Origin: Escherichia phage 236Ecol005PP
Reading direction: 5' to 3' (one strand)
Sequence record: PP434423.1
Length of the DNA stretch: 64,000 nucleotides
Shown: positions 16,996 through 54,816 of the stretch, piece after piece
Numbering within the stretch: position 1 is the first letter of the stretch
Layout of the letters: every line of letters begins with the position of its first letter
Made by a program: the position numbers and the translations under genes
The notes under the pieces: generated by a model
What the model was told of the DNA's origin: nothing
Database searches by the model: none
The model's input: the letters and a program-made list of their open reading frames with translations, nothing else

Positions 16996-19044
16996 TTATC
17001 CTTGAACGAACTTGTAAGGCATGTTTGCAATATCTATGCAAGACGCAATAATTCCAAGAGATGATTCTGCTTTCTGTTTAACATTTGATGAAACAAACGA
17101 TGCAAAGTCAACTCTATCTTCTATATCACCTGTCATTGTAACCAATTCACCAGTTTCCATTAAACGGTCACCGTCATAAATTACCGATTCGGTGAGTTCT
17201 TCTGTGGTCATAACTTCAGCTTGAATAAGCTTGTTGTTAGTTCTAACTGTTCCATCGTTGTAAGATGCATCAGTTATTTTATTAACTTTGACCATTAATC
17301 CACGTGGCAAAATGACTTCCATTTCATTTGAAGGCGCTAAACTTCCACCGGGTAAAACAACATTGACTTTATCAGCCCCAGTAATAACCCATCCAATTCC
17401 AACTAAATTATCGCTAGAATTTACAAGTCCTTCATCAGTTTTATCAATAGAAACACTTAAACGCTTTTCGTCTGGTAAAACACCCACAGATGAATCAGTC
17501 ATCCAAGTACCAAAAATATTTGGATATAATGATGTTGACACAAAGTTTCTAAAATAAAAAACTCGATTTTTTACCATTGCTTCGTATATTGAAGGTAACA
17601 TTCGTTGTGAACGATACAAAGTAATACCTTTTGGTAATCGTTCACCATTTTTAAAGGCTGAATCTAAATTATCAATGGCTTGTTCTATTTCAGGTGCTGT
17701 TAAAATACTTGTACGCTCATCTGGATTATATAATCCCAAAAGAGCATTATTCATGTCTACATATCCTGAACCTACATATTCACGAATTCCGCGTTTTTGC
17801 GCTGGTGTGTATTTAGATGAATCTTTATTTTCGACTATAGGATGTAATGACCATCCAGCGGTAAGAGCATATCCACGTAATTCTCTTCGAATAATCTTTG
17901 TTTTTATTGCATTCCAAGAATTTTGTACTAACTCATTTGCAGCATCTTGGTTTAAATGCGAATGTCTGTTAATATTTCTTTCAAACCAAGCACCTTTATA
18001 TTTTTCTAAAGTATCATCGACGATAGAAGCAATAGTTTCTAAAGTTTTTATTGAAGTAATAGATTCTTTTCGTAATTTTTCTAAAGCTTTATTTTTTATT
18101 TCTGCATTAATAATGGATTCTTTATCTTCAGGAATTATAGAAGCTTCTCTGAATGCCATCCCAGCTGTAACACTGCTAAGAGCATTCTCTAATGCAAATC
18201 CTGAAGTAGAAATAACAGTTAATTCGTTAGCATCAGAAATTAAAGGCGCGTCGGCGGGTTTATTTAATTCTGCTGCTGAAGCCTCAAATTTTTGAAACAT
18301 TGGTGTTTCAAATCTAGAAGATTCCAATGACTGACTTTGTGCAATTGCTCTACGGGAAATTTTAACTTTAACAATAACAGCTTGGTCAGAACGTTTATCA
18401 TTTTCTTGCGCAATAGATGCAGCAATTGCCTCATTTTTAGTTACTTGAGCTCCAGTATCTTTATTGATATAAACATCACCGACCTTCGATTCAACTTTAG
18501 TAAAGAGCTCGGTGCTAATTTCCGGAACTCCTGGAATGTCTTCTAGTGATACATTTTTGCGATGTATAAGAATATATGCATACTTTTTATCGTAATCCCA
18601 GAGTTCCTTAAGAAGGACGTATCTGCCACCTGAACGACTGCGGATAAGTCTATCAGCAATAACTTGAATTTGTCGAGCTTGACCAGCAGTTTTAGACTTA
18701 AGAATACGAAGCATGCAGGCATCAATTTTATACTGACGCATCGTTTGCATCGCAACAGTAAAAACTGAATTGATGTAATTAATTGGGCTTGGACCGAGAC
18801 CTTTTAATTTAGCAATTGAACCTTTAGCAGTTAATGTAAAAGGAACGATGTGCATCATTTTATCGCCCATCTTTAAATCACGGTTAGTATCACCTCCAGA
18901 TGTATAAGTACATAAACGAAAGCCTGGTTGTTCTATTGCGTCATCAACATGAACTGAAAAAATTTGTGGTATTTTCTTCTTTGGATACAAATTTGTAATC
19001 GGAAGAGTAGTATTTTCGTCAAATAATTCTGTAATAAGTTCCAT
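16996..19044 (-). CDS. alt: Alt ADP-ribosyltransferase (packaged into capsid)
   Basis: 682/683-aa ORF; second ATG at 19044 has better RBS spacing; T4 Alt length. Confidence 0.9.
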   Translation of the reverse strand: MELITELFDENTTLPITNLYPKKKIPQIFSVHVDDAIEQPGFRLCTYTSGGDTNRDLKMGDKMMHIVPFTLTAKGSIAKLKGLGPSPINYINSVFTVAMQTMRQYKIDACMLRILKSKTAGQARQIQVIADRLIRSRSGGRYVLLKELWDYDKKYAYILIHRKNVSLEDIPGVPEISTELFTKVESKVGDVYINKDTGAQVTKNEAIAASIAQENDKRSDQAVIVKVKISRRAIAQSQSLESSRFETPMFQKFEASAAELNKPADAPLISDANELTVISTSGFALENALSSVTAGMAFREASIIPEDKESIINAEIKNKALEKLRKESITSIKTLETIASIVDDTLEKYKGAWFERNINRHSHLNQDAANELVQNSWNAIKTKIIRRELRGYALTAGWSLHPIVENKDSSKYTPAQKRGIREYVGSGYVDMNNALLGLYNPDERTSILTAPEIEQAIDNLDSAFKNGERLPKGITLYRSQRMLPSIYEAMVKNRVFYFRNFVSTSLYPNIFGTWMTDSSVGVLPDEKRLSVSIDKTDEGLVNSSDNLVGIGWVITGADKVNVVLPGGSLAPSNEMEVILPRGLMVKVNKITDASYNDGTVRTNNKLIQAEVMTTEELTESVIYDGDRLMETGELVTMTGDIEDRVDFASFVSSNVKQKAESSLGIIASCIDIANMPYKFVQG

Positions 19045-19067
19045 CATATCCTCTCTAGTGTTTATTC

Positions 19068-19096: not shown

Positions 19097-19285
19097 TTAA
19101 TAATCTAATGGTAAGAGAGTACGATATATTTCAAACTTTGGCCCTTTTTCATAGGCATCAAATGTTTCTGAAAATTTATTATAAGCATATGCATCTACAA
19201 ATTCGAGAATGATTTGTGATACAGAAGTAGAAACATCTCCACCTTCTTTTTGAGCAATGACAATTGTTTCTAAGTAAGCTTTCAT
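19097..19285 (-). CDS. hypothetical protein
   Basis: 62-aa ORF between gene 30 and alt with start overlapping gene 30 stop. Confidence 0.45.
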   Translation of the reverse strand: MKAYLETIVIAQKEGGDVSTSVSQIILEFVDAYAYNKFSETFDAYEKGPKFEIYRTLLPLDY

Positions 19286-20745
19286 AGACCAGTTACCTCA
19301 TGAAAATCGCCAAATACATCCTCGAATGTATTAGCTTTAGTTTTATCTTCACGTAAACGAATCGCAATCGGAAGAAATAATTTAACGTAATCAGTGCGGC
19401 CATCAGATTTTAACCAACCATTGCATTCGCACTCTAGAATTTTTCCAATATAATAATTTTGGTTTTCCATAATGCGAGTACGGTCAAGTTCATGCGATTT
19501 TACACCGGCTTTATCTTTTAAGCCTGAACCAGCATTTACTTTAATTTTTCCACACTCTGACTCAAGAATAAATCCACCTGCTTTAGTAGGGTCTTTACGG
19601 TGAGGATAAATTCCTACAATTTTTAAATCAACATCAATTACTTCTTTAAATTTATAGAGATTTTTTGAACGAGCATTTTCCCATAATCCATCGATATTTT
19701 TGAGAATAATACCTTCAAGACCTTGGTCAATATACTTTTTATAAATTACCTTAGCTTCATCTAGGTTATTTACTACCTGGTTTTCAATTAAAATTACTTT
19801 ATCATAGCCTGATGTCATTTGTTCTAGTTTAGAAAAACGTACATCATATTTCAAACGAAATGCAGGAAGACCGTATATTTCTACCAACGGGACATAATCC
19901 CAGACCTGAAACTTCATGCATTGAGCTTCTTTTTCAGAAATGGTTCCCTTTAAAGATTTATTGGCGATGCCATTAGATGCAGTACGTGATTCAGCTACTT
20001 CTGTGAAGTCTTTAACTTTGCTGTTTTCAGGATGAGCATCAAAAAGAAAATCTAGGCCTTCTGGCTCCTTTTTAACTTGCTCATGGTATACCAATTCGCC
20101 ATCAATTAACACACCTTCTGGATGAATCTGGCGGGCTTCAGCAGTCATTTTGATTAACTCTTCCTTAAGAAGATCTAATCCTAGATATTCATTACCGGCT
20201 CGTGATAAAAGACGAACATCATCTAATTCATCACCTCGGACTTCAGCAAAACACCGAGCTCCATCTGCTTTTAACTGTGCAAAGGCTGGAAACTTAATAT
20301 TCTTATTAATGCCTTTTTCATCATAAGAACTTGCCAGCATTTGAGGTTGTTCAGGAATTAAACCTGACCAAACTTTGTTTGCAATAGATACTGAAGCACC
20401 GCATTCAAGGTCTCGCATCATAACTCGACGCAAAACTTCAACATCATTCTTTTTACCATCAGTGATATATCCAGTCAATTCCTCAATTGCAGCATTTCCA
20501 GTCAATTTCCGAGTAGCTAATGTGAATTCAATGAAGTCAAGCATATCGGTAAGAGTCAACATTCCAAAACTCTGGGTAGTAATACCAGGTTTAGGCCATT
20601 TCTTGATATAATACTGCAACCCACGAGAATAAGTCAGACGATATACTCGTTTAAGCAATTCATTATCTTTATTCTTTTCAAGAATTGCTTGCTTCTGCTT
20701 AGTTGAACCAATAGATGCTATTTCGTTCAGAATTTTAAGAATCAT
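19282..20745 (-). CDS. 30: ATP-dependent DNA ligase gp30
   Basis: 487-aa ORF with ligase adenylation motif (KADGAR). Confidence 0.9.
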   Translation of the reverse strand: MILKILNEIASIGSTKQKQAILEKNKDNELLKRVYRLTYSRGLQYYIKKWPKPGITTQSFGMLTLTDMLDFIEFTLATRKLTGNAAIEELTGYITDGKKNDVEVLRRVMMRDLECGASVSIANKVWSGLIPEQPQMLASSYDEKGINKNIKFPAFAQLKADGARCFAEVRGDELDDVRLLSRAGNEYLGLDLLKEELIKMTAEARQIHPEGVLIDGELVYHEQVKKEPEGLDFLFDAHPENSKVKDFTEVAESRTASNGIANKSLKGTISEKEAQCMKFQVWDYVPLVEIYGLPAFRLKYDVRFSKLEQMTSGYDKVILIENQVVNNLDEAKVIYKKYIDQGLEGIILKNIDGLWENARSKNLYKFKEVIDVDLKIVGIYPHRKDPTKAGGFILESECGKIKVNAGSGLKDKAGVKSHELDRTRIMENQNYYIGKILECECNGWLKSDGRTDYVKLFLPIAIRLREDKTKANTFEDVFGDFHEVTGL

Positions 20746-21011
20746 TATTCATCCTTCAGAGTTTGGTTTACAGCTCTATTATAAATCAATTCATCATTAA
20801 GCTCAGTCAAAGACTTATGATATGTGGTTCTAACTTTATTTCCTTGCATCCAGTGCTTGATATAAATGAAACCTTGCTCTACACATTTTTTAAAAATTCG
20901 TTCGTCTTTTTGAGCTCGGAACTCTGGATTGCATCTAAAAAATTGATTTACGTGACCGTAATCACGTGTAGTATTACCTTCATTTTCATAAATAGTGTGA
21001 ACAACAAACAT
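20745..21011 (-). CDS. 30.1: hypothetical protein
   Basis: 88-aa ORF, synteny. Confidence 0.55.
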   Translation of the reverse strand: MFVVHTIYENEGNTTRDYGHVNQFFRCNPEFRAQKDERIFKKCVEQGFIYIKHWMQGNKVRTTYHKSLTELNDELIYNRAVNQTLKDE

Positions 21012-21874
21012 TAGAATGCTCCTTGAAAAATATTATCACCACTAGTAAGTCTATTAAAATACCCTGCGTCGCCAGGCTTAATATAACTCCACGTGTGGAA
21101 TGGATTCATATGATACGGGTGTGTATAATATGGATTATATGGATGTGTATAATATGGATGATATGGATTTAATCCAGGCGTTCTCCAGGTAGTGTTCCAA
21201 GGAAAAGAATCGTTTTTAACCATCTTCTCAATTACATCTTTTATAGCTTTTTCACTATCAAAACTTTCTTTATTTTCCTTTGGTGAAAAAAGCTTATTCT
21301 CTACATCGTTCCATGTATAAACTCGCTGTGCAGTTTTTGGAATATTGTCACGCTCTCCTCGCGCCATCCAATAAACAGGAACATTTAATATTTCATTCGC
21401 ATGATCGCAATGGTGAGCAAGATCGTCAATATAACAAATTACGTTATATTTCTCTTTTGCCTTTTTGAATAACTCTTCTTTTGAAGAATCATGACCACAC
21501 ATCATTACTTCTGAGAAGGCACCAGGAAAAAGAGCATTCAAATTAAATTGACGATTCAACAGAGCGTCAATAGAATCACCCAATGCTGTAACAGCTACAA
21601 AATTATAATCTTCTTTTAATTTGTTAATTACACACAGAGCATCTTTATACGGAGACAAGTAACGAATAAAATCTGAACGATTGTATTTTTCAATTAACTT
21701 GACGCCAAGTTCTTCATCACAATTAAATAGTTTACCTGGAGAAATAAATTTCTCATCTTGGATCATTTTTAAAATATGTTCTAACGGAAGATTATATTTC
21801 TGAGCAAAATAAGGAAGGCCTGATTGCCAGCTTAAACATACTCCATCAATATCAGTCAAAATAGTTGGCTTCAT
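21011..21874 (-). CDS. 30.2: HAD-superfamily hydrolase-like protein (nucleotidase-like)
   Basis: N-terminal DIDGV motif; C-terminal tyrosine/proline-rich short repeat. Confidence 0.6.
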   Translation of the reverse strand: MKPTILTDIDGVCLSWQSGLPYFAQKYNLPLEHILKMIQDEKFISPGKLFNCDEELGVKLIEKYNRSDFIRYLSPYKDALCVINKLKEDYNFVAVTALGDSIDALLNRQFNLNALFPGAFSEVMMCGHDSSKEELFKKAKEKYNVICYIDDLAHHCDHANEILNVPVYWMARGERDNIPKTAQRVYTWNDVENKLFSPKENKESFDSEKAIKDVIEKMVKNDSFPWNTTWRTPGLNPYHPYYTHPYNPYYTHPYHMNPFHTWSYIKPGDAGYFNRLTSGDNIFQGAF

Positions 21875-22335
21875 AGAGAGTCTCTTAATAGGTTTAACAC
21901 ATCAATAAATTCAGCTTCGGTTAGTATTGTATCATCTTTTGTTAGACCACTAGCCATGCTGTGCTTCAAAACTTTTCCTTTCGAGGCTTGTAATGCATCG
22001 CGAAAGCCCTTGTTTTGGAACGCTGCTTCAAAATATGCATTTGTGTATAATTCTTTCCACGCCGGAGAGTATCTTGAAAACGGAACTCCAAGCCAAAAGA
22101 GGGTCCCACGGTCCTGAGCTCTAGCATAAGACCTTCCAGCTTGTTGGGCGGCAAGCCCGGATAACCCAAATATACGACGCTGTTGTTCAACATTTTTCAC
22201 CTTGCATCCTTGGAGGAATCCTTCGAGACCTCCAAATTGAATACCATCCATAACGAAAGGCCATTGGGCGAAATTACTTAATGCGCATGATGGCCATCTA
22301 AAATTGCTTCTTATCTCTAACTCAGACATTTTCAA
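21871..22335 (-). CDS. 30.3: NADAR (YbiA-like) domain protein
   Basis: SNFAQWPF...DG...EGFLQGCK pattern matching the NADAR signature. Confidence 0.6.
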   Translation of the reverse strand: MKMSELEIRSNFRWPSCALSNFAQWPFVMDGIQFGGLEGFLQGCKVKNVEQQRRIFGLSGLAAQQAGRSYARAQDRGTLFWLGVPFSRYSPAWKELYTNAYFEAAFQNKGFRDALQASKGKVLKHSMASGLTKDDTILTEAEFIDVLNLLRDSL

Positions 22336-22528
22336 TACTTATAATTTCAACATCAGCCCAATGACCATAGCAAGGAAGACGAAATTCAACTGGCCAGTTA
22401 GGGTCCTTTTCTAATATAATAGACTGAACTTGTGGCTCTTCATGTTCATCGGTATACGGACCTTTATACGTTACTTTATATGTGACCTTAATGTACTGAA
22501 TTCCAAAAATCTTATTAATTATATTCAT
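22322..22528 (-). CDS. 30.4: hypothetical protein
   Basis: 68-aa ORF, synteny. Confidence 0.5.
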   Translation of the reverse strand: MNIINKIFGIQYIKVTYKVTYKGPYTDEHEEPQVQSIILEKDPNWPVEFRLPCYGHWADVEIISIENV

Positions 22529-22722
22529 ATTAATTCCTTTAATCCATAGATAGGAGATAATTCATCACCCATACGAAGGTCTTCATTTCCATCTACCCAG
22601 GAAACAATATAAGCCTCTTTTATTTGAATACCACTCCATTTAAATGGAGGTAGAACCTTAGAAATTAATCCAGGTATACCAACTCCCTTTAATTCAACAG
22701 TTTGACCCGAAAAGAATTTCAT
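22525..22722 (-). CDS. 30.5: hypothetical protein
   Basis: 65-aa ORF, overlapping start/stop. Confidence 0.5.
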   Translation of the reverse strand: MKFFSGQTVELKGVGIPGLISKVLPPFKWSGIQIKEAYIVSWVDGNEDLRMGDELSPIYGLKELI

Positions 22723-23009
22723 TAGAACCTCATCTGAAAACCATGCGATTTAACATTACCGCCGCCAATATCAGAAATGTTAATTTCGCGCGCAATTGAA
22801 GGGTCAATGTCAATTTCACGATTGAGTTTAGTGATAGCTAAAGTATCGCGTCCATTTACAGTACGGAACTCTAAAGGGCAGACTACATTAACGTAGTTTT
22901 TAATCGATTCACTGATAGGTTGCAAATGAGCAGGAAGGTCTTTAGGTGCCTTAGAGAAAACCACTTCACAGAAATTTTTGCGGGTATCAAAATAAGTAGT
23001 CATAAACAT
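22722..23009 (-). CDS. 30.6: hypothetical protein
   Basis: 95-aa ORF. Confidence 0.55.
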   Translation of the reverse strand: MFMTTYFDTRKNFCEVVFSKAPKDLPAHLQPISESIKNYVNVVCPLEFRTVNGRDTLAITKLNREIDIDPSIAREINISDIGGGNVKSHGFQMRF

Positions 23010-23050
23010 AGTATTTTCCTCAGTAAGGGGCCGAAGCCCCTCATTTTATT

Positions 23051-23416
23051 TTAAATATCAAATTCGTTAAGAACTACATCAAAGATCGCTTCAAGATGCT
23101 CAGGTTTAGCTCTGTTACTCAGAATATGACGAATCCAAGTTTTAACCAGAAGCTTACGATTGACGCCATTCCAGCAAGGATGAGTCCCTAAATCACGTTG
23201 ACGGAAATCATCATCTAATGCGATTTTAAAAGAAGAACCTTCTTTCGTGATTGAAACCGTGATGCCATTTTCAAATCGCATATAAACGTAATTAGGAGTC
23301 ATATACTGTTCAATTTCGCATACTGATCCATTTTGATGTTTCCAAAGGCAGATAGTATCAATAGAACCTGCAATACCGTTAGAAACATATTTACGTTCAA
23401 AGTTGATGTAGTTCAT
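23051..23416 (-). CDS. 30.7: hypothetical protein
   Basis: 121-aa ORF downstream of early promoter. Confidence 0.55.
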   Translation of the reverse strand: MNYINFERKYVSNGIAGSIDTICLWKHQNGSVCEIEQYMTPNYVYMRFENGITVSITKEGSSFKIALDDDFRQRDLGTHPCWNGVNRKLLVKTWIRHILSNRAKPEHLEAIFDVVLNEFDI

Positions 23417-23453
23417 TTTTATTCTCCGAGATGTTTAATTGCGGTACAGGTAT

Positions 23454-23482
23454 ATAATATCATATCCTGTACCAAAGTAAAC
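23454..23482 (-). promoter_or_regulatory. T4-type early promoter
   Basis: GTTTACT, 16-17 nt, TGaTATTAT on minus strand. Confidence 0.5.
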
Positions 23483-23484
23483 AA

Positions 23485-23817
23485 TTATTTTACTACTTTC
23501 CATTGCTGCATGTCAAGTTTACCAACTTTTTTCATCTTCTCAATTAAGCGTTCGACACGTTGGCGAGCTGTAACATAATACCATTCACCCAATTCATTTT
23601 GTTCAATTTTTCCAACGATTACTGTATTCAATTCATAAATCCAACCAGTAAAGAAATTATGAACTTGAATTGTAAAGGTGAAATCTGTTCCCATACCTTC
23701 TGTTGTTTCTACTTCAATAATATCACCTTCAACTGCCATTAAGAACCACATAGTTTCATCATATTTACCATTGAAGCATTTAATTTTAACTGTAGCGTTC
23801 AGATTAATCGTTTTCAT
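23485..23817 (-). CDS. 30.8: hypothetical protein
   Basis: 110-aa ORF. Confidence 0.55.
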   Translation of the reverse strand: MKTINLNATVKIKCFNGKYDETMWFLMAVEGDIIEVETTEGMGTDFTFTIQVHNFFTGWIYELNTVIVGKIEQNELGEWYYVTARQRVERLIEKMKKVGKLDMQQWKVVK

Positions 23818-23844
23818 TTTATTCTCCTTTGTTTGTGTAAGATA

Positions 23845-23874
23845 ATACTATTACAAAGGAACCATACTGTAAAC
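23845..23874 (-). promoter_or_regulatory. T4-type early promoter
   Basis: GTTTACA, 17 nt, TAGTAT. Confidence 0.4.
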
Positions 23875-23893
23875 AACTTTGTGCAATCTTTGG

Positions 23894-23923
23894 AAAATAA
23901 AAAAGGACTCCCGAAGGAGTCCT
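23894..23923 (-). terminator. intrinsic terminator after 30.9
   Basis: AGGACTCC-TTCG-GGAGTCCT hairpin followed by T-run on minus strand. Confidence 0.6.
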
Positions 23924-23927
23924 CAAC

Positions 23928-24104
23928 TTATGCTTTCTGCTTACCAAAACGAGAAGCATCATCTCGAAGAACCGCACGTGCTCGGCGCATGATCTTCTCA
24001 ACAGTTTGATTGATACGAGAGTTCGACCCACGCTTGTAACCAGCGCGTTTAGAATCACCAACTTTCTTTTCAACTGCTTTCTTTGCTTTAGCTTGTTTTG
24101 CCAT
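23928..24104 (-). CDS. 30.9: small basic protein
   Basis: ORF-track ORF trimmed to the ATG giving 58 aa (MAKQAKAKK...). Confidence 0.5.
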   Translation of the reverse strand: MAKQAKAKKAVEKKVGDSKRAGYKRGSNSRINQTVEKIMRRARAVLRDDASRFGKQKA

Positions 24105-24500
24105 TATAAATTCTCTTTTAAATGAAAATGCAGGACTTATTGGCATTGCCTGCGCAAGCCCTCAAGGGGAACATAGGTTTTGGATATTTAACGACAGGAT
24201 AACCATAAACCCGTCATCATACCTTATAGCTCTTATCTGTTGCACACCGTTAGCTTAAAGGTTCCGGGTCCGATTTCTCGAGGATAAGATATATACTGAT
24301 GGATATATAGGCCTTGAGGCGTACTCCCGATTGGCCATCACCTCGGGGTAGCATGCACTTGCCGCTATAAGAATAACATTCAAGAGGTACACCGTAAAAC
24401 TGCCGGGGTCTTAAAACTATAATGATTCGCAAATCATTAATCAGACAGTTCGACGGCTCCTCGATTTTAGCTCACACTAAGGCAGTGACTCTCCAATAAA

Positions 24501-24749
24501 TTACTTCAGTGTTACCACAAAGTGACGAACTGCTTTTCGTGCGGCAGAAGCCAGAGGCTTAGCATACTTAAGTTCATCTTTTTCCTGGAGCTCAGCGGCT
24601 AATGCAGTTTGAGCAGGATTCAGATGTTTGAAATAACGCAGGATTTCAAGAGCTTCGGCTTCAACATCAATAGATGCGCCATAGTTTTCGTGACCATTAT
24701 TCCATGCGTTTCGTTGCAGTTCAAGAGCGTGTTGTAATTGTTTAATCAT
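24501..24749 (-). CDS. rIII: rIII lysis-inhibition accessory protein
   Basis: 82-aa ORF, T4 rIII length and synteny next to gene 31. Confidence 0.85.
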   Translation of the reverse strand: MIKQLQHALELQRNAWNNGHENYGASIDVEAEALEILRYFKHLNPAQTALAAELQEKDELKYAKPLASAARKAVRHFVVTLK

Positions 24750-24888
24750 TTAAAAATTCTCGTTAGAGATTAAAACTCGGTAGTCACGTTCTTCTGAATT
24801 TCATCTTCTTTCGACAGATCTCTCAGTTGTAGACTACCACATAGAATTGTTCGGTTAACTTATTATTCCGACACCCAATTCATATTAT

Positions 24889-24896
24889 TATTTATA
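24889..24896 (-). promoter_or_regulatory. late promoter TATAAATA upstream of rIII
   Basis: exact motif on minus strand just downstream of gene 31 stop. Confidence 0.5.
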
Positions 24897-25232
24897 TCAC
24901 TTATAAAGACACGGAATAGCTTTATAGTGACAGGTAACAAATTTTTGTTTAATTTCTTTTGGCTGCTTAAGACCCAGAGCTACAAAAGGATGAGGAACAT
25001 TTCGAATTTGACCAACTGGAAGAGAAGTCAAATCACCAACTTCGCAGAAACCTTCAGGAACATCAGGACCAACAGAGTGAACTACACACAGTTCAGGAAC
25101 TTCACCTTGGACACGTTTACCGATAATAAGTCCTGATTCTGTAACTTCTTCATCGCCGGCTTGTGCAGGTTCAGAAACTAAAATAACATATTCACCGACA
25201 GCACGAATTGGTAGCTGTTGTACTTCAGACAT
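24897..25232 (-). CDS. 31: gp31 co-chaperonin (GroES-like)
   Basis: 111-aa ORF, synteny. Confidence 0.9.
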
Positions 25233-25288
25233 CGTTTTTCCTTTTTGTTAACAGATGAATTAATAATAACAAATAATTCTTAAAGCAT

Positions 25289-25597
25289 TTATTTACCAAT
25301 AAATTGAAGCAAATGCTCAACTTTCATACCATTAACGGAAATCAATTTGTCAATAGAAAAACCTCGCCATGCACCTAGTTCAACATCAAATACTGGAATC
25401 ATATCAGTAGATTCTTTCCGAGTAGATTCAGTCAATTTACCGGTTTGCATGGTTGGCATAAAGTCAGCATCACGAGTGCCTTTCATAGTACGAATAGTAC
25501 CATCAGACTTTTCAAAAACCACGTTTGAAATACCCATGGACAATTTAGTTTTCAAAATTTCACGAATTGCTACTTTCTGTTCAGTTGTCAGTTTCAT
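25289..25597 (-). CDS. 31.1: hypothetical protein
   Basis: 102-aa ORF. Confidence 0.55.
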   Translation of the reverse strand: MKLTTEQKVAIREILKTKLSMGISNVVFEKSDGTIRTMKGTRDADFMPTMQTGKLTESTRKESTDMIPVFDVELGAWRGFSIDKLISVNGMKVEHLLQFIGK

Positions 25598-50079: not shown

Positions 50080-53000
50080 ATGGCTACTTTAAAACAAATA
50101 CAATTTAAAAGAAGCAAAACCGCAGGTGCACGTCCTGCTGCTTCAGTATTAGCCGAAGGTGAATTGGCTATAAACTTAAAAGATAGAACAATTTTTACTA
50201 AAGACGATTCAGGAAATATCATTGATCTAGGTATTGCTAAAGGCGGTCAAATTGATGGAAATGTGACTATTGATGGAACTTTACGCGTCAATGGACCAAT
50301 AAACAACTTTGGAAATTTTTCTACAAGTGGTACTATCACGGCAAGTAATATTGTTTCTGCTACAGTATTCAGATCAACATCCGGTTCATTTTATACAAGA
50401 GCAATAAATGATACAGCAAATGCCCATCTTTGGTTTGAAAATACAAATGGATCAGAGAGAGGTGTTTTATATTCAAAACCACAGTCTGAAAATGAAGGCG
50501 TAATTACAATGCGTGTTCGCCAAGGAACCGCAGCAGGGGCTCAAAATTCAGAATTTCATTTCATTTCTACTGATGGCGGTATCTTCCAGGCACGCAAATT
50601 AACTGCTTTAACTTCTATTAGTACACCAACTATTAGTGTTAATTTAATTAATCATGATTCTAAAGCCTTTGGACAATATGATTCACAATCTTTGGTCAAC
50701 TATGTTTATCCTGGAACCGGTGAAACAAACGGTATAAACTATCTTCGTAAAGTTCGCGCTAAAGCTGCCGGAACCATGTGGCACGAAATCTGTACAGCTC
50801 AGACCGGCCAAGCAGATGAAATGTCTTGGTGGACAGGTAATACTCCATCATCTAAACAATATGGCATTCGTAATGACGGACGAATGGCAGGCCGTAATAG
50901 CCTTGCATTAGGTACATTCACTACGGGTTTCCCGTCTAGTGATTATGGTAACGTCGGTGTAATGGGCGATAAGTATCTTGTTCTCGGTGACACTGTAACC
51001 GGTCTGAAATATATTAAGCAAGGTGTTTATGATTTAGTTGGTGGAGGTTATTCCGTTGCATCTATTACCCCGGATAGTTTCCGTAGTACTCGTAAAGCAA
51101 TATTTGGACGCTCAGAAGACCAAGGTGCAACATGGATTATGCCTGGAACCAACGCTGCGGCTTTATCGGTTCAAACACAAGCTGATGAAAACACTGCTGG
51201 AGACGGCCAGACACATATTGGCTATAACTCAGGCGGTAAAATGAACCACTATTTCCGTGGTAAAGGCAAAACTAATATTAATACTCAAGAAGGCATGGAA
51301 GTTAACCCGGGTATTCTTAAACTAGTAACCGGTGCTAACAGTATTAGCTTTAACGCTGCAACAGGTAATATTGATTCTACATTAGCTTTTCGTCTTAATA
51401 AAGGTATAATTATTGATGGACCTGATAATCAGGGATTCCAATTTAATGCTCCGACGGCTGTAGATGGTACTAGAAGCATATACTGGAATAGTGGCACTCG
51501 CGCAGGTCAAAACAAAAACCCTGTTACAGTTAAAGTGTGGGGTAATTCATTTAACGCATCTGGTGATCGTAGTCGTGAAACCGTTTTTGAAGTAGCTGAT
51601 GGGCAAGGTTACCATTTTTATTCTCAACGCGTAGCTCCTGCACCTGGTTCGACTGTCGGGCCTATTCAACTCCGAGTTAATGGTGGTTTATTAACTTCAG
51701 GTAGTATTGTTACTTCTGGTTCTATTACAACCGAATCAAGCTTAGTTGCAAATAATGGATTGTCTGTAAATGGACAAGCTAAATTTGGCGGAACAGCAAA
51801 CGCACTAAGAATTTGGAACGCTGAATATGGTGCTATTTTCCGTCGTTCGGAAAGTAACTTTTATATTATTCCAACCAATCAAAATGAAGGCGAAAGCGGA
51901 GACATTCACAGCTCTTTGAGACCTGTGAGAATAGGATTAAACGATGGCATGGTTGGGTTAGGAAGAGATTCTTTTATAGTAGATCAAAATAATGCTTTAA
52001 CTACTATAAACAGTAACTCTCGCATTAATGCCAACTTTAGAATGCAATTAGGACAAAACGCTTATATAGATATTGAAGCTTCTGACGGCATTCGTCCAGC
52101 AGGGTGTGGTTCATTTGCATCCCAGAATGACGTAAACGTCAGAGCTCCAATTTATATGAATATAGAGCGTACTGCTACTTCTGAATATATTCCTATTGTT
52201 AAACAGCGTTATGTGCAAGGTGATAGCACTTATTCTATTGGGACATTAATTAATCAAGGAGATTTCCGTGTTCATTATCACCAGGGAACTAGCACCAATG
52301 GCGTAGATTTGAGTTGGGAATTCCGTCGCACAGGCGATTTCCGCGCGGCAGGTAAAATTATTGCCGGTGCTGCTACTCTTGGCACTGATGGTAATATCAC
52401 GGGCGGTTCAGGAAACTTTGCTAACTTGAATACAACTTTAAACCGTAAAGTGAATTCTGGTTTTATTACTTATGGAGCAACTGCAGGTTGGTACAAGTTT
52501 GCAACAGTAACAATGCCTCAAGCTACATCAACCGTTTCAATTACAGTCACTGGCGGAAATGGATTTAATTCTGGATCATTTAATCAGTGCGCAATTTCTG
52601 AAATTGTTCTTCGTACAGGAAACAATAATCCTAAAGGATTAAATGCTGTTCTATATAGAAGAGGACTAAATTCATTTAGAGATATTGCTTGGGTTAATAC
52701 ATCTGGTGATACATATGACATTTATGTTAATATGGGAACATATGCTAATCAGTTGATATTTAACTATAGTTCTGTTGATAACGCTACAGTTCAAATTATT
52801 GGCGCATTCAGTTCAGCCCAAAATCCTGTTGATGCATTGCCAGGAACATATATTAAAGGTCAGGTAGCAGATGTATTAACTAACTTAGTTGATTCTGGAA
52901 AAACGAAACGTTTTGTTGCTGAATCTGAAATAGCTGTTAATAATCAAACTGGATTACGTATTACGAGTAATGGTGATAAATCTGGTTCAAATTCAGTATT

Positions 53001-54003
53001 ATTCAGAAATGACGGTGGAAGTTTCTATATTTTACTGACCGACAAAAACTCTTCAGACGGCGATAATAAAGCAACTGAAGGTGATTGGAATGGAAAACGA
53101 CCGTTTTCAATTGATATGACTGCTGGTACTGTTCGTCTTGGCGAAAATACTTCTTTTAGTAAAGATGTTACTATTGATGGAAACATTAATTCACGAGTTA
53201 AAGTTGTCGGACAGTGGAATGTTAGCTTTTCTGATATTTCAGATGTGACTCGTGACCGTTCTGCATTTTTAGTGAATACGGGTGCTATAACAGCTACAAG
53301 CCAATCTTATTATCCATTGTTTTCTGGGTATAGTTATTTGAAAGATACTGGATATTGTCAATCATTTGAATTTGGATGGTTAGGTGTTTCTGGTACTTGG
53401 CGTCAAGGCATTATTCGCATGCGTGGTGACAGTACATCAGGGCAACAGGCTCGTTGGACTTTTGATATGGACGGAACATTTTATGCTCCTATACTATCAT
53501 GCGGATCTGCGAGAGCATTCGGTGTCAATACATCAAATGGTCTCGGTGGAAACAGTATAACATTTGGTGATAGCGATACTGGTATTAAGCAAAATGGCGA
53601 TGGATTATTAGACATATATGCGAACAACGTACAAGTATTCCGTTTCCAAAATGGCGATTTGTACTCATATAAAAATATAAATGCTCCAAACGTTTATATT
53701 CGTTCTGATATTCGTTTAAAATCCAACTTTAAACCTATCGAAAACGCACTTGATAAAGTTGAAAAACTTAACGGTGTCATTTACGATAAAGCTGAATACA
53801 TCGGTGGAGAGGCAATTGAAACTGAAGCGGGTATTGTGGCTCAAACTTTACAAGACGTTTTACCAGAAGCTGTCCGTGAAACAGAAGACAGTAAGGGTAA
53901 TAAAATACTCACTGTTTCTTCTCAAGCCCAGATTGCTCTTCTGGTTGAAGCTGTGAAAACACTTTCTGCTCGTGTAAAAGAACTTGAATCTAAACTTATG
54001 TAA
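50080..54003 (+). CDS. 37: long tail fibre distal subunit gp37 (T2-type, with C-terminal chaperone-like domain)
   Basis: 1307-aa ORF, longer than T4 gp37; C-terminal ~100 aa resemble intramolecular-chaperone domains of fibre proteins. Confidence 0.9.
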
Positions 54004-54033: not shown

Positions 54034-54816
54034 ATGGCAATTGTAGGTGTTCCTGGCTGGATTGGCGAATCTGCCGTGAATGAAACTGGACAACGTTGGA
54101 TGGATGCTGCGATGAAAGCAGTTCGTGTTTCAGTTCCCGGTTGGATGAGCTCAATGGCTGGACAATCTAAAGAAATACATTACAGCATTGGTGCTAGCAA
54201 TTCTTATAATAAAGACACACTAATAAATTGGATAAAAGCTCAAGGAAGTACTCCTGTTGTTATTACAATTACAGGCAATATCGTTTCTCACTCTACCGGC
54301 GTTCCGTGTCTGGATTTCCCTAGTTCGTTGACCAACGCATATGTTACGTTGATCATTAACTCCGGTGTGACTGTCTATGGACGCGGTGGCAATGGTGGTA
54401 GTAACGCTGGTGGTGGCGCTGGTGGTAACGCAATTAATAATGGCATCGGTACACGCTTGCGTATTACGAATAATGGTGCAATCGCTGGAGGTGGTGGCGG
54501 TGGTGGCGGCGGTAACTACGGTAGACTATCATTTGGTGGTGGTGGTGGTCGCCCATTCGGTGCTGGCGGGTCTTCCAATCATATGAGTTCCGGTGCAACC
54601 GCTGGCTCCATTTCCGCTCCAGGTAAAGGATCTGCTGGTGAGGGGTCTCTTCATGTATATAAAGGCGGGAATGGCGGTGAAGTTGGCTCTGCTGGAGGAA
54701 GATGTAATATTCAAGGGAACGGTACAGAATATAACGGCGGCGCAGCAGGTAAAGCTGTTACTGGTAATGCTCCAACTTGGACTAAAGTTGGTACAATATA
54801 TGGTTCAAGAGTATAA
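54034..54816 (+). CDS. 38: gp38 receptor-recognising adhesin (T2 type) with polyglycine tracts
   Basis: 260-aa ORF with several glycine-rich stretches flanking short variable segments. Confidence 0.8.
   Translation: MAIVGVPGWIGESAVNETGQRWMDAAMKAVRVSVPGWMSSMAGQSKEIHYSIGASNSYNKDTLINWIKAQGSTPVVITITGNIVSHSTGVPCLDFPSSLTNAYVTLIINSGVTVYGRGGNGGSNAGGGAGGNAINNGIGTRLRITNNGAIAGGGGGGGGGNYGRLSFGGGGGRPFGAGGSSNHMSSGATAGSISAPGKGSAGEGSLHVYKGGNGGEVGSAGGRCNIQGNGTEYNGGAAGKAVTGNAPTWTKVGTIYGSRV

Follow-up and report, generated by a model that had tools for sequence, protein, structure and literature searches.

What is encoded by the small gene between genes 30.2 and 30.4 of Escherichia phage 236Ecol005PP (PP434423.1), and does it help the phage against host defense? 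A first-pass annotation, made from the sequence alone, read its product as a NADAR-domain protein that may remove ADP-ribose from guanine bases and so counter DarT-type DNA ADP-ribosylation, and drew attention to the ADP-ribosyltransferase Alt encoded in the same genome. We followed up this reading in the window, by which we mean the whole 64,000-nucleotide stretch of phage DNA that was analyzed; positions are those of the window unless another genome is named.

Genomic Setting of the Locus

A megablast search with the 1.2 kb surrounding the gene returned 657 phage records, mainly from T4-like phages of Escherichia and Shigella; 447 of the records lie at 95-99% identity, and a 20-kb query gave the same picture. 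The window is that of a T4-like phage (Tequatrovirus), and its local gene order, alt, DNA ligase, 30.1, 30.2, 30.3, 30.4, is the order of the T4 annotation (Table 1). From 30.4 through 30.3, 30.2, and 30.1 to the ligase gene, the minus strand carries an unbroken chain with successive overlaps of 8, 4, 1, and 1 nt, a layout that suggests that the whole block may be translationally coupled.

When positions 20500-25500 were scanned for promoters and terminators, 21 and 4 candidates were found, against 17.9 ± 3.7 and 3.1 ± 1.7 in shuffled sequence. Upstream of 30.8 there is a strong hairpin with a T-run behind it, GAGGACTCCTTCGGGAGTCCTT, and the best sigma-70-like site (TTGACA-18-TAAAAT, 11/12) is found just upstream of 30.7; in a scan that overall was not above the shuffled expectation, the two are candidates for a terminator and an early promoter at the borders of the transcription unit 30.7-30. 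Elsewhere in the window, the gene of a 1307-aa distal long tail fiber protein is followed by that of a 260-aa protein (phrog_2056, "tail fiber protein; host specificity") and then by a holin gene. The tail fiber pair is presumably a T2/T6-type gp37 with a gp38 adhesin and not of the T4 type, in which case the phage looks like a mosaic despite its T4-like 30.3 region.

Assignment of the Start Codon

The open reading frame (ORF) listing contains a TTG-started minus-strand ORF of 154 aa, and the strings quoted in the first-pass annotation occur in order within its translation (ALSNFAQWPFVMDGIQFGGLEGFLQGCK). This ORF is real, but its start has to be moved. The third codon is an in-frame ATG at 22329, and the sequence shows that the stop codon of 30.4, the gene upstream, overlaps it (ATGTCTGA); in the T4 reference annotation, gene 30.3 (459 nt, 152 aa) begins at the equivalent ATG; and E36 and K43, as numbered in the literature, fit this start only. 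Because the annotated T4 start and the E36/K43 numbering fit the ATG alone, we place the gene at 21871-22329, with a product that is likely 152 aa rather than 154 aa long. The two further codons, TTG AAA, are probably not translated.

A second ORF, ATG-started and 75 aa long, lies wholly within 30.3 in the +1 frame, matches phrog_14037 (E = 4e-43), and is annotated in T4 as 30.3' ("internal translation, in a different reading frame"). Dhakavirus phages, Acinetobacter phage KARL-1, and Aeromonas phiAS5 also have 74-89 open codons in this frame, which is broken in RB69, Vibrio PVA8, Ralstonia RSP15, and Acinetobacter AB1I1T. With conservation this inconsistent across relatives, we rejected 30.3' as a conserved second product.

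Table 1. Features of the window, with positions, strand, and the basis of each assignment
Feature	Position	Strand	Basis or remark
alt	16996..19047	-	683 aa; PF03496, E = 1.3e-33
DNA ligase (gene 30)	19282-20745	-	PF01068
30.1	between ligase and 30.2	-	DUF3045
Gene 30.2	21011..21874	-	ATG overlaps the 30.3 stop (ATGA)
Gene 30.3/adfN, coding sequence (152 aa + stop)	21871..22329	-	ORF; T4 length and start; 150/152 identity; PF08010
ORF as called mechanically (154 aa)	21871..22335	-	TTG start
Two extra in-frame codons, TTG AAA	22330..22335	-	Counted by the mechanical ORF call and in the first-pass annotation; within the end of gene 30.4
Gene 30.4	22322..22528	-	Stop end overlaps the 30.3 start by 8 nt; phrog_2042
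Chain 30.4, 30.3, 30.2, 30.1, ligase	20745-22528	-	Overlapping genes
Internal ORF 30.3'	21966-22193	-	+1 frame relative to 30.3
N-terminal NADAR signature, residues 16-43, ALSNFAQWPFVMDGIQFGGLEGFLQGCK	22201..22284	-	Aligned to YbiA FSNFAAWPIKVDGKTWPTSEHYFQAQK by profile search
Glu36 codon GAA, catalytic glutamate	22222..22224	-	Conserved in 63/63; aligns to the YbiA SEHYFQ glutamate
Lys43 codon AAG, phosphate-coordinating lysine	22201..22203	-	Conserved in 61/63
His123 codon CAC, phage NADAR clade marker	21961..21963	-	Conserved in 63/63; directly after model strand 120-122
C-terminal alpha-helix, residues 138-151, intact	21877..21918	-	AlphaFold model
Sigma-70-like site	23487-23516	-	Just upstream of 30.7
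Hairpin and T-run	23903-23924	-	Upstream of 30.8
Distal long tail fiber protein	50080-54003	+	1307 aa
Tail fiber protein, host specificity	54034-54816	+	260 aa; phrog_2056

Identity with T4 gp30.3 and Spread of the Family

The 152-aa protein is equal in length to T4 gp30.3 and identical to it at 150 of 152 positions. The two differences, I104F and I125M, are conservative substitutions at positions that vary in the family: at position 125, 30 of the 63 homologues have Met, more than have any other residue, and at position 104 Phe is found in 7 of the 63. In Pfam the protein matches PF08010 (Phage_30_3) with E = 9e-70 and 233.3 bits against a cutoff of 36, covering profile positions 1-138 of 138, and in PHROGs it belongs to phrog_652, matching positions 126-272 of a profile 296 positions long. 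The match of this ORF to the gp30.3 family is far beyond chance. By tblastn, the protein finds matches in 1510 phage records, which extend over T4-like phages of Klebsiella, Acinetobacter, Aeromonas, and Vibrio to a Rhizobium phage (Pootjesviridae) and a Ralstonia phage. The window gene is thus the 30.3/adfN orthologue of a T4-like phage, a gene already characterized in T4.

The homologues in Rhizobium phage RHph_I34 (locus L005, 5016-5480) and Ralstonia phage RSP15 (locus L006, 4995-5513) belong to the gp30.3 clade at 31-38% identity. Both phages lie outside the Straboviridae according to their records, and the gene sits in differing neighborhoods, in one adjoining a helicase gene and in the other within a tRNA gene array. 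In two metagenomic homologues of 201 aa (P0030 and P0032), about 60 additional N-terminal residues precede the Phage_30_3 domain, which in P0030 occupies residues 64-198.

Membership in the NADAR Superfamily

Tests with the single protein were negative: a Pfam scan gave no match to PF08719, the Pfam NADAR family, at E ≤ 1, an NCBIfam scan gave no match, and phmmer against the PDB sequences returned noise only (3RJZ at E = 0.83). Because of this, a simple profile search would wrongly seem to refute the NADAR reading. A homologue search returned 104 sequences, all with PF08010 and several carrying the JGI name "YbiA (DUF1768 family)", and from 63 full-length homologues we built an alignment and a family profile. 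The profile matches Escherichia coli YbiA (2B3W) with E = 0.007 across the SNF...DG...E-x-F/Y-x-Q-x-x-K motif. In addition, 22 of the 63 homologues match PF08719 weakly (best E = 1.5e-7, 32.3 bits, just below the cutoff of 35.1), and the next most frequent family is matched by 4 of the 63. Profile searching, a check proposed in the first-pass annotation, therefore gave a split outcome, without a PF08719 match for the protein alone and with a YbiA match for its family.

Structure prediction, the other computational check proposed, came out in favor of the NADAR reading. A single-sequence AlphaFold model (pLDDT 36) was discarded and replaced by one based on the 63-sequence alignment, with pLDDT 93 and pTM 0.89. 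This model has the alpha-helical core flanked by two small beta-sheets that is used to recognize the NADAR fold, and its best Foldseek match is E. coli YbiA. On the basis of the profile search, the transitive matches, and the structure, we hold that the window protein is a member of the NADAR superfamily.

Catalytic Residues and the C-Terminal Helix

A catalytic Glu and a phosphate-binding Lys define NADARs in the literature. Within the N-terminal signature, residues A16, L17, S18, N19, F20, F25, E36, G37, F38, and Q40 are invariant in the 63 homologues, and the motif E-x-(F/Y)-x-Q-x-x-K is present with E36 and K43 and aligns to SEHYFQAQK of YbiA. In T4 AdfN, the name now given to gp30.3, the E36A variant is treated as catalytically inactive in vitro and gives partial rescue in vivo, K43A impairs the protein, and both variants keep partial activity in vivo (PMC11825919). 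The lysine equivalent to K43 in the E. coli C7 NADAR, K95, is essential (PMC11543638). A position in the last strand distinguishes the subfamilies: it is His in gp30.3 proteins, Glu in the YbiA family, and Asp in DarG1-type proteins (PMC11125620, PMC11543638). The window protein has the phage residue, His123. The conservation of E36, K43, and H123, taken with the family-level matches to YbiA and PF08719, upholds the NADAR/YbiA-like pattern that the first-pass annotation had noticed.

The same residue bears on the proposal that gp30.3 does metabolic housekeeping as a YbiA-like N-glycosidase acting on intermediates of the riboflavin pathway. Cleavage of riboflavin intermediates is a described role of YbiA, YbiA is the best match of the window protein both by sequence profile and by Foldseek, and one phage homologue is annotated as a "swarming motility YbiA-like protein". 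However, YbiA and the Phytophthora NADAR (8BAU) are only 18-20% identical to the window protein, the last-strand Glu that defines YbiA is replaced by His in all 63 homologues, riboflavin damage control is of no obvious use to a phage, and a specific antidefense phenotype is already documented (PMC11825919). We regard a riboflavin role as extremely unlikely.

The distal end of the protein is informative as well. In phage RB69, an orthologue at the equivalent locus is near-identical over residues 1-137 but carries a frameshift with a stop at residue 137, so that the last 15 residues, the terminal helix, are lost. RB69 is DarTG1-sensitive, and T4 AdfN truncated at the RB69 stop position has reduced activity (PMC11825919). 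By analogy with this naturally inactive allele and with the T4 AdfN truncation, the helix would be needed for full activity of the window protein too; the window allele is full length.

Published Function of the Orthologue

The function of T4 gp30.3 has been worked out experimentally. Using recombination with RB69, Johannesman et al. (Nat Commun 2025, PMC11825919) traced the DarTG1 resistance of T2 and T4 to 30.3, to which they gave the new name adfN, for anti-DarT factor NADAR. With adfN deleted, T4 and T2 form no plaques on hosts that carry DarTG1, and RB69 is rescued by the gene on a plasmid, a rescue weakened by E36A and K43A; adfN is both necessary and sufficient for the DarTG1 resistance of T-even phages. 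The purified protein strips ADP-ribose from DarT1-modified DNA, and E36A does not (PMC11825919). Binding of AdfN to the toxin was negative in a two-hybrid assay, and adfN has no role in DarTG2 resistance (PMC11825919). An independent study (Toxins 2024, PMC11125620) found that T4 gp30.3 hydrolyzes guanosine-ADPr and not thymidine-ADPr in vitro, and in a 2026 paper the T4 protein again stands for the "phage NADAR" family.

Taken together with the 150/152 identity, this published work supports the suggestion that the gene counters a DarT-type defense by removing ADP-ribose from guanine. The target can be narrowed in one respect: DarT1, which modifies guanine, stands, and DarT2 does not, in view of the DarTG2 result in T4. 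We consider it very probable that the window gene, as the 30.3/adfN orthologue, encodes a minimal single-domain ADP-ribosylglycohydrolase of the NADAR fold that reverses guanine ADP-ribosylation by DarT1, and from its 99% identity the I104F, I125M allele is expected to behave as T4 AdfN. In a host carrying DarTG1, the DarT1 toxin ADP-ribosylates guanine in the phage DNA and blocks replication; gp30.3 would then cleave the N-glycosidic bond that joins ADP-ribose to guanine, so that the DNA is again unmodified and replication can proceed. Acting on the modification with no binding to the toxin, the protein would be an "orphan antitoxin".

Substrates Other than DarT1-Modified DNA

A different main substrate has been suggested from genomic context by Iyer et al. 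(2022), who proposed that phage NADARs prefer low-molecular-weight ADPr derivatives. On such a view, gp30.3 would mainly hydrolyze soluble ADPr derivatives or ADP-ribosylated RNA, which might be host immune signals or byproducts of RNA repair, and DNA would be secondary. In keeping with this, the literature credits every NADAR family with the removal of G-ADPr from RNA in vitro as well, and AdfN works poorly outside T-even infection. Yet the phenotype of the adfN deletion is a specific loss of DarTG1 resistance, and the purified enzyme acts on DarT1-modified DNA (PMC11825919). Hydrolysis of soluble ADPr or RNA-ADPr may be a side activity; as the principal role it fails to explain the specific DarTG1 phenotype, and we judge it highly unlikely.

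The first-pass annotation was correct that Alt is encoded in the same genome (Table 1), which raises the possibility that gp30.3 erases the marks of the phage's own ADP-ribosyltransferases (ARTs), Alt, ModA, and ModB. The alt gene lies ∼2.8 kb from 30.3 on the same strand, the order alt, ligase, 30.2, 30.3 recurs in T4-like phages of Acinetobacter and Aeromonas, and early expression together with the ARTs has been stated for T4-like NADARs (Iyer et al. 2022). Against this, Alt falls in the protein-targeting exoenzyme ART family PF03496 and is annotated in T4 as an RNA-polymerase mono-ADP-ribosyltransferase, whereas the NADARs tested so far cleave base-linked ADP-ribose, from guanine and in some cases cytidine. 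The adjacency is moreover one of Straboviridae synteny and is absent in the Vibrio, Rhizobium, and Ralstonia phages with a gp30.3 homologue. Since Alt acts on proteins and its closeness to 30.3 reflects conserved gene order, we rejected a functional link between 30.3 and Alt as the main explanation, and we regard it as extremely unlikely that gp30.3 serves to erase such marks.

Dependence on the T-Even Context

Removal of guanine ADP-ribose from phage DNA by gp30.3 remains our preferred reading, but the picture of a free-standing eraser is incomplete. In uninfected E. coli, T4 AdfN gives no protection from DarT1, and its rescue of non-T-even phages is only weak; a T-even-specific factor or context is needed. 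T4 without its DNA modifications still depends on AdfN, and the authors suggested that an additional T-even factor is involved in AdfN action. One thought is that this factor is encoded by the coupled gene 30.2, whose product is phosphatase-like, or 30.4, and forms a module that recruits NADAR to, or activates it on, replicating phage DNA; the ATGA overlap of 30.2 and the 8-nt overlap of 30.4 make these two the candidates, and were it true, the locus would be a small counterdefense module. We think this very unlikely.

The 30.2 product has no Pfam or NCBIfam match; its only match, a weak one to a polynucleotide-kinase PHROG (phrog_415, E = 7e-4), points to a slight resemblance to the phosphatase-like part of that enzyme. 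A 30.2 homologue adjoins the 30.3 homologue in T4-like phages of Acinetobacter and Aeromonas, and this adjacency is absent in the Vibrio, Rhizobium, and Ralstonia phages examined. We do not take the adjacency as a functional link because general synteny suffices to account for it, and gene-neighborhood conservation gave no support to 30.2 as an obligatory partner: the adjacency is limited to Straboviridae with shared synteny and absent in the three distant phages. The 30.2 product has 287 aa here, against 278 in T4. Its first ∼235 residues are nearly identical to those of T4, and its Pro/Tyr/His-rich C-terminal tail is longer by an insertion of 10 residues relative to T4 (YTHPYNPYYT), a repeat of the local YTHPY/NPY(Y) motif, and has otherwise diverged.

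Comparison with Known NADAR Systems

The closest known system is T4 AdfN itself, with which the window gene shares the 30.2 and 30.4 flanks, the catalytic E36 and K43, and an intact C-terminal helix. The DarG1 NADARs (the BC4488 family, among them those of E. coli C7 and Geobacter lovleyi, 8BAT) differ in several respects: they are encoded beside DarT1, are extended at the N-terminus to 219 aa, carry Asp in the last strand, and protect uninfected cells from DarT1, which AdfN(T4) does not, whereas the window protein is a 152-aa core domain with His123. There is no DarT1 gene beside 30.3, where the neighbors 30.2 and 30.4-30.6 are without an ART domain and the sole nearby ART is Alt, and we accordingly describe the gene as an orphan. 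[quoted passage not shown] They form separate NADAR clades, independently acquired, and unlike the T4-type protein they neutralize DarT1 without infection and rescue unrelated phages.

Implications for the Phage and Its Annotation

The finding adds no new biology. The hypothesis has already been established experimentally on a protein that differs from this one at two residues. The value of the finding lies in part in annotation, as most database records in our search tables still label the gene "hypothetical protein". An intact, characterized counterdefense gene predicts that phage 236Ecol005PP would be resistant to E. coli bearing DarTG1, and an intact adfN is useful for host-range prediction and for the choice of phages.
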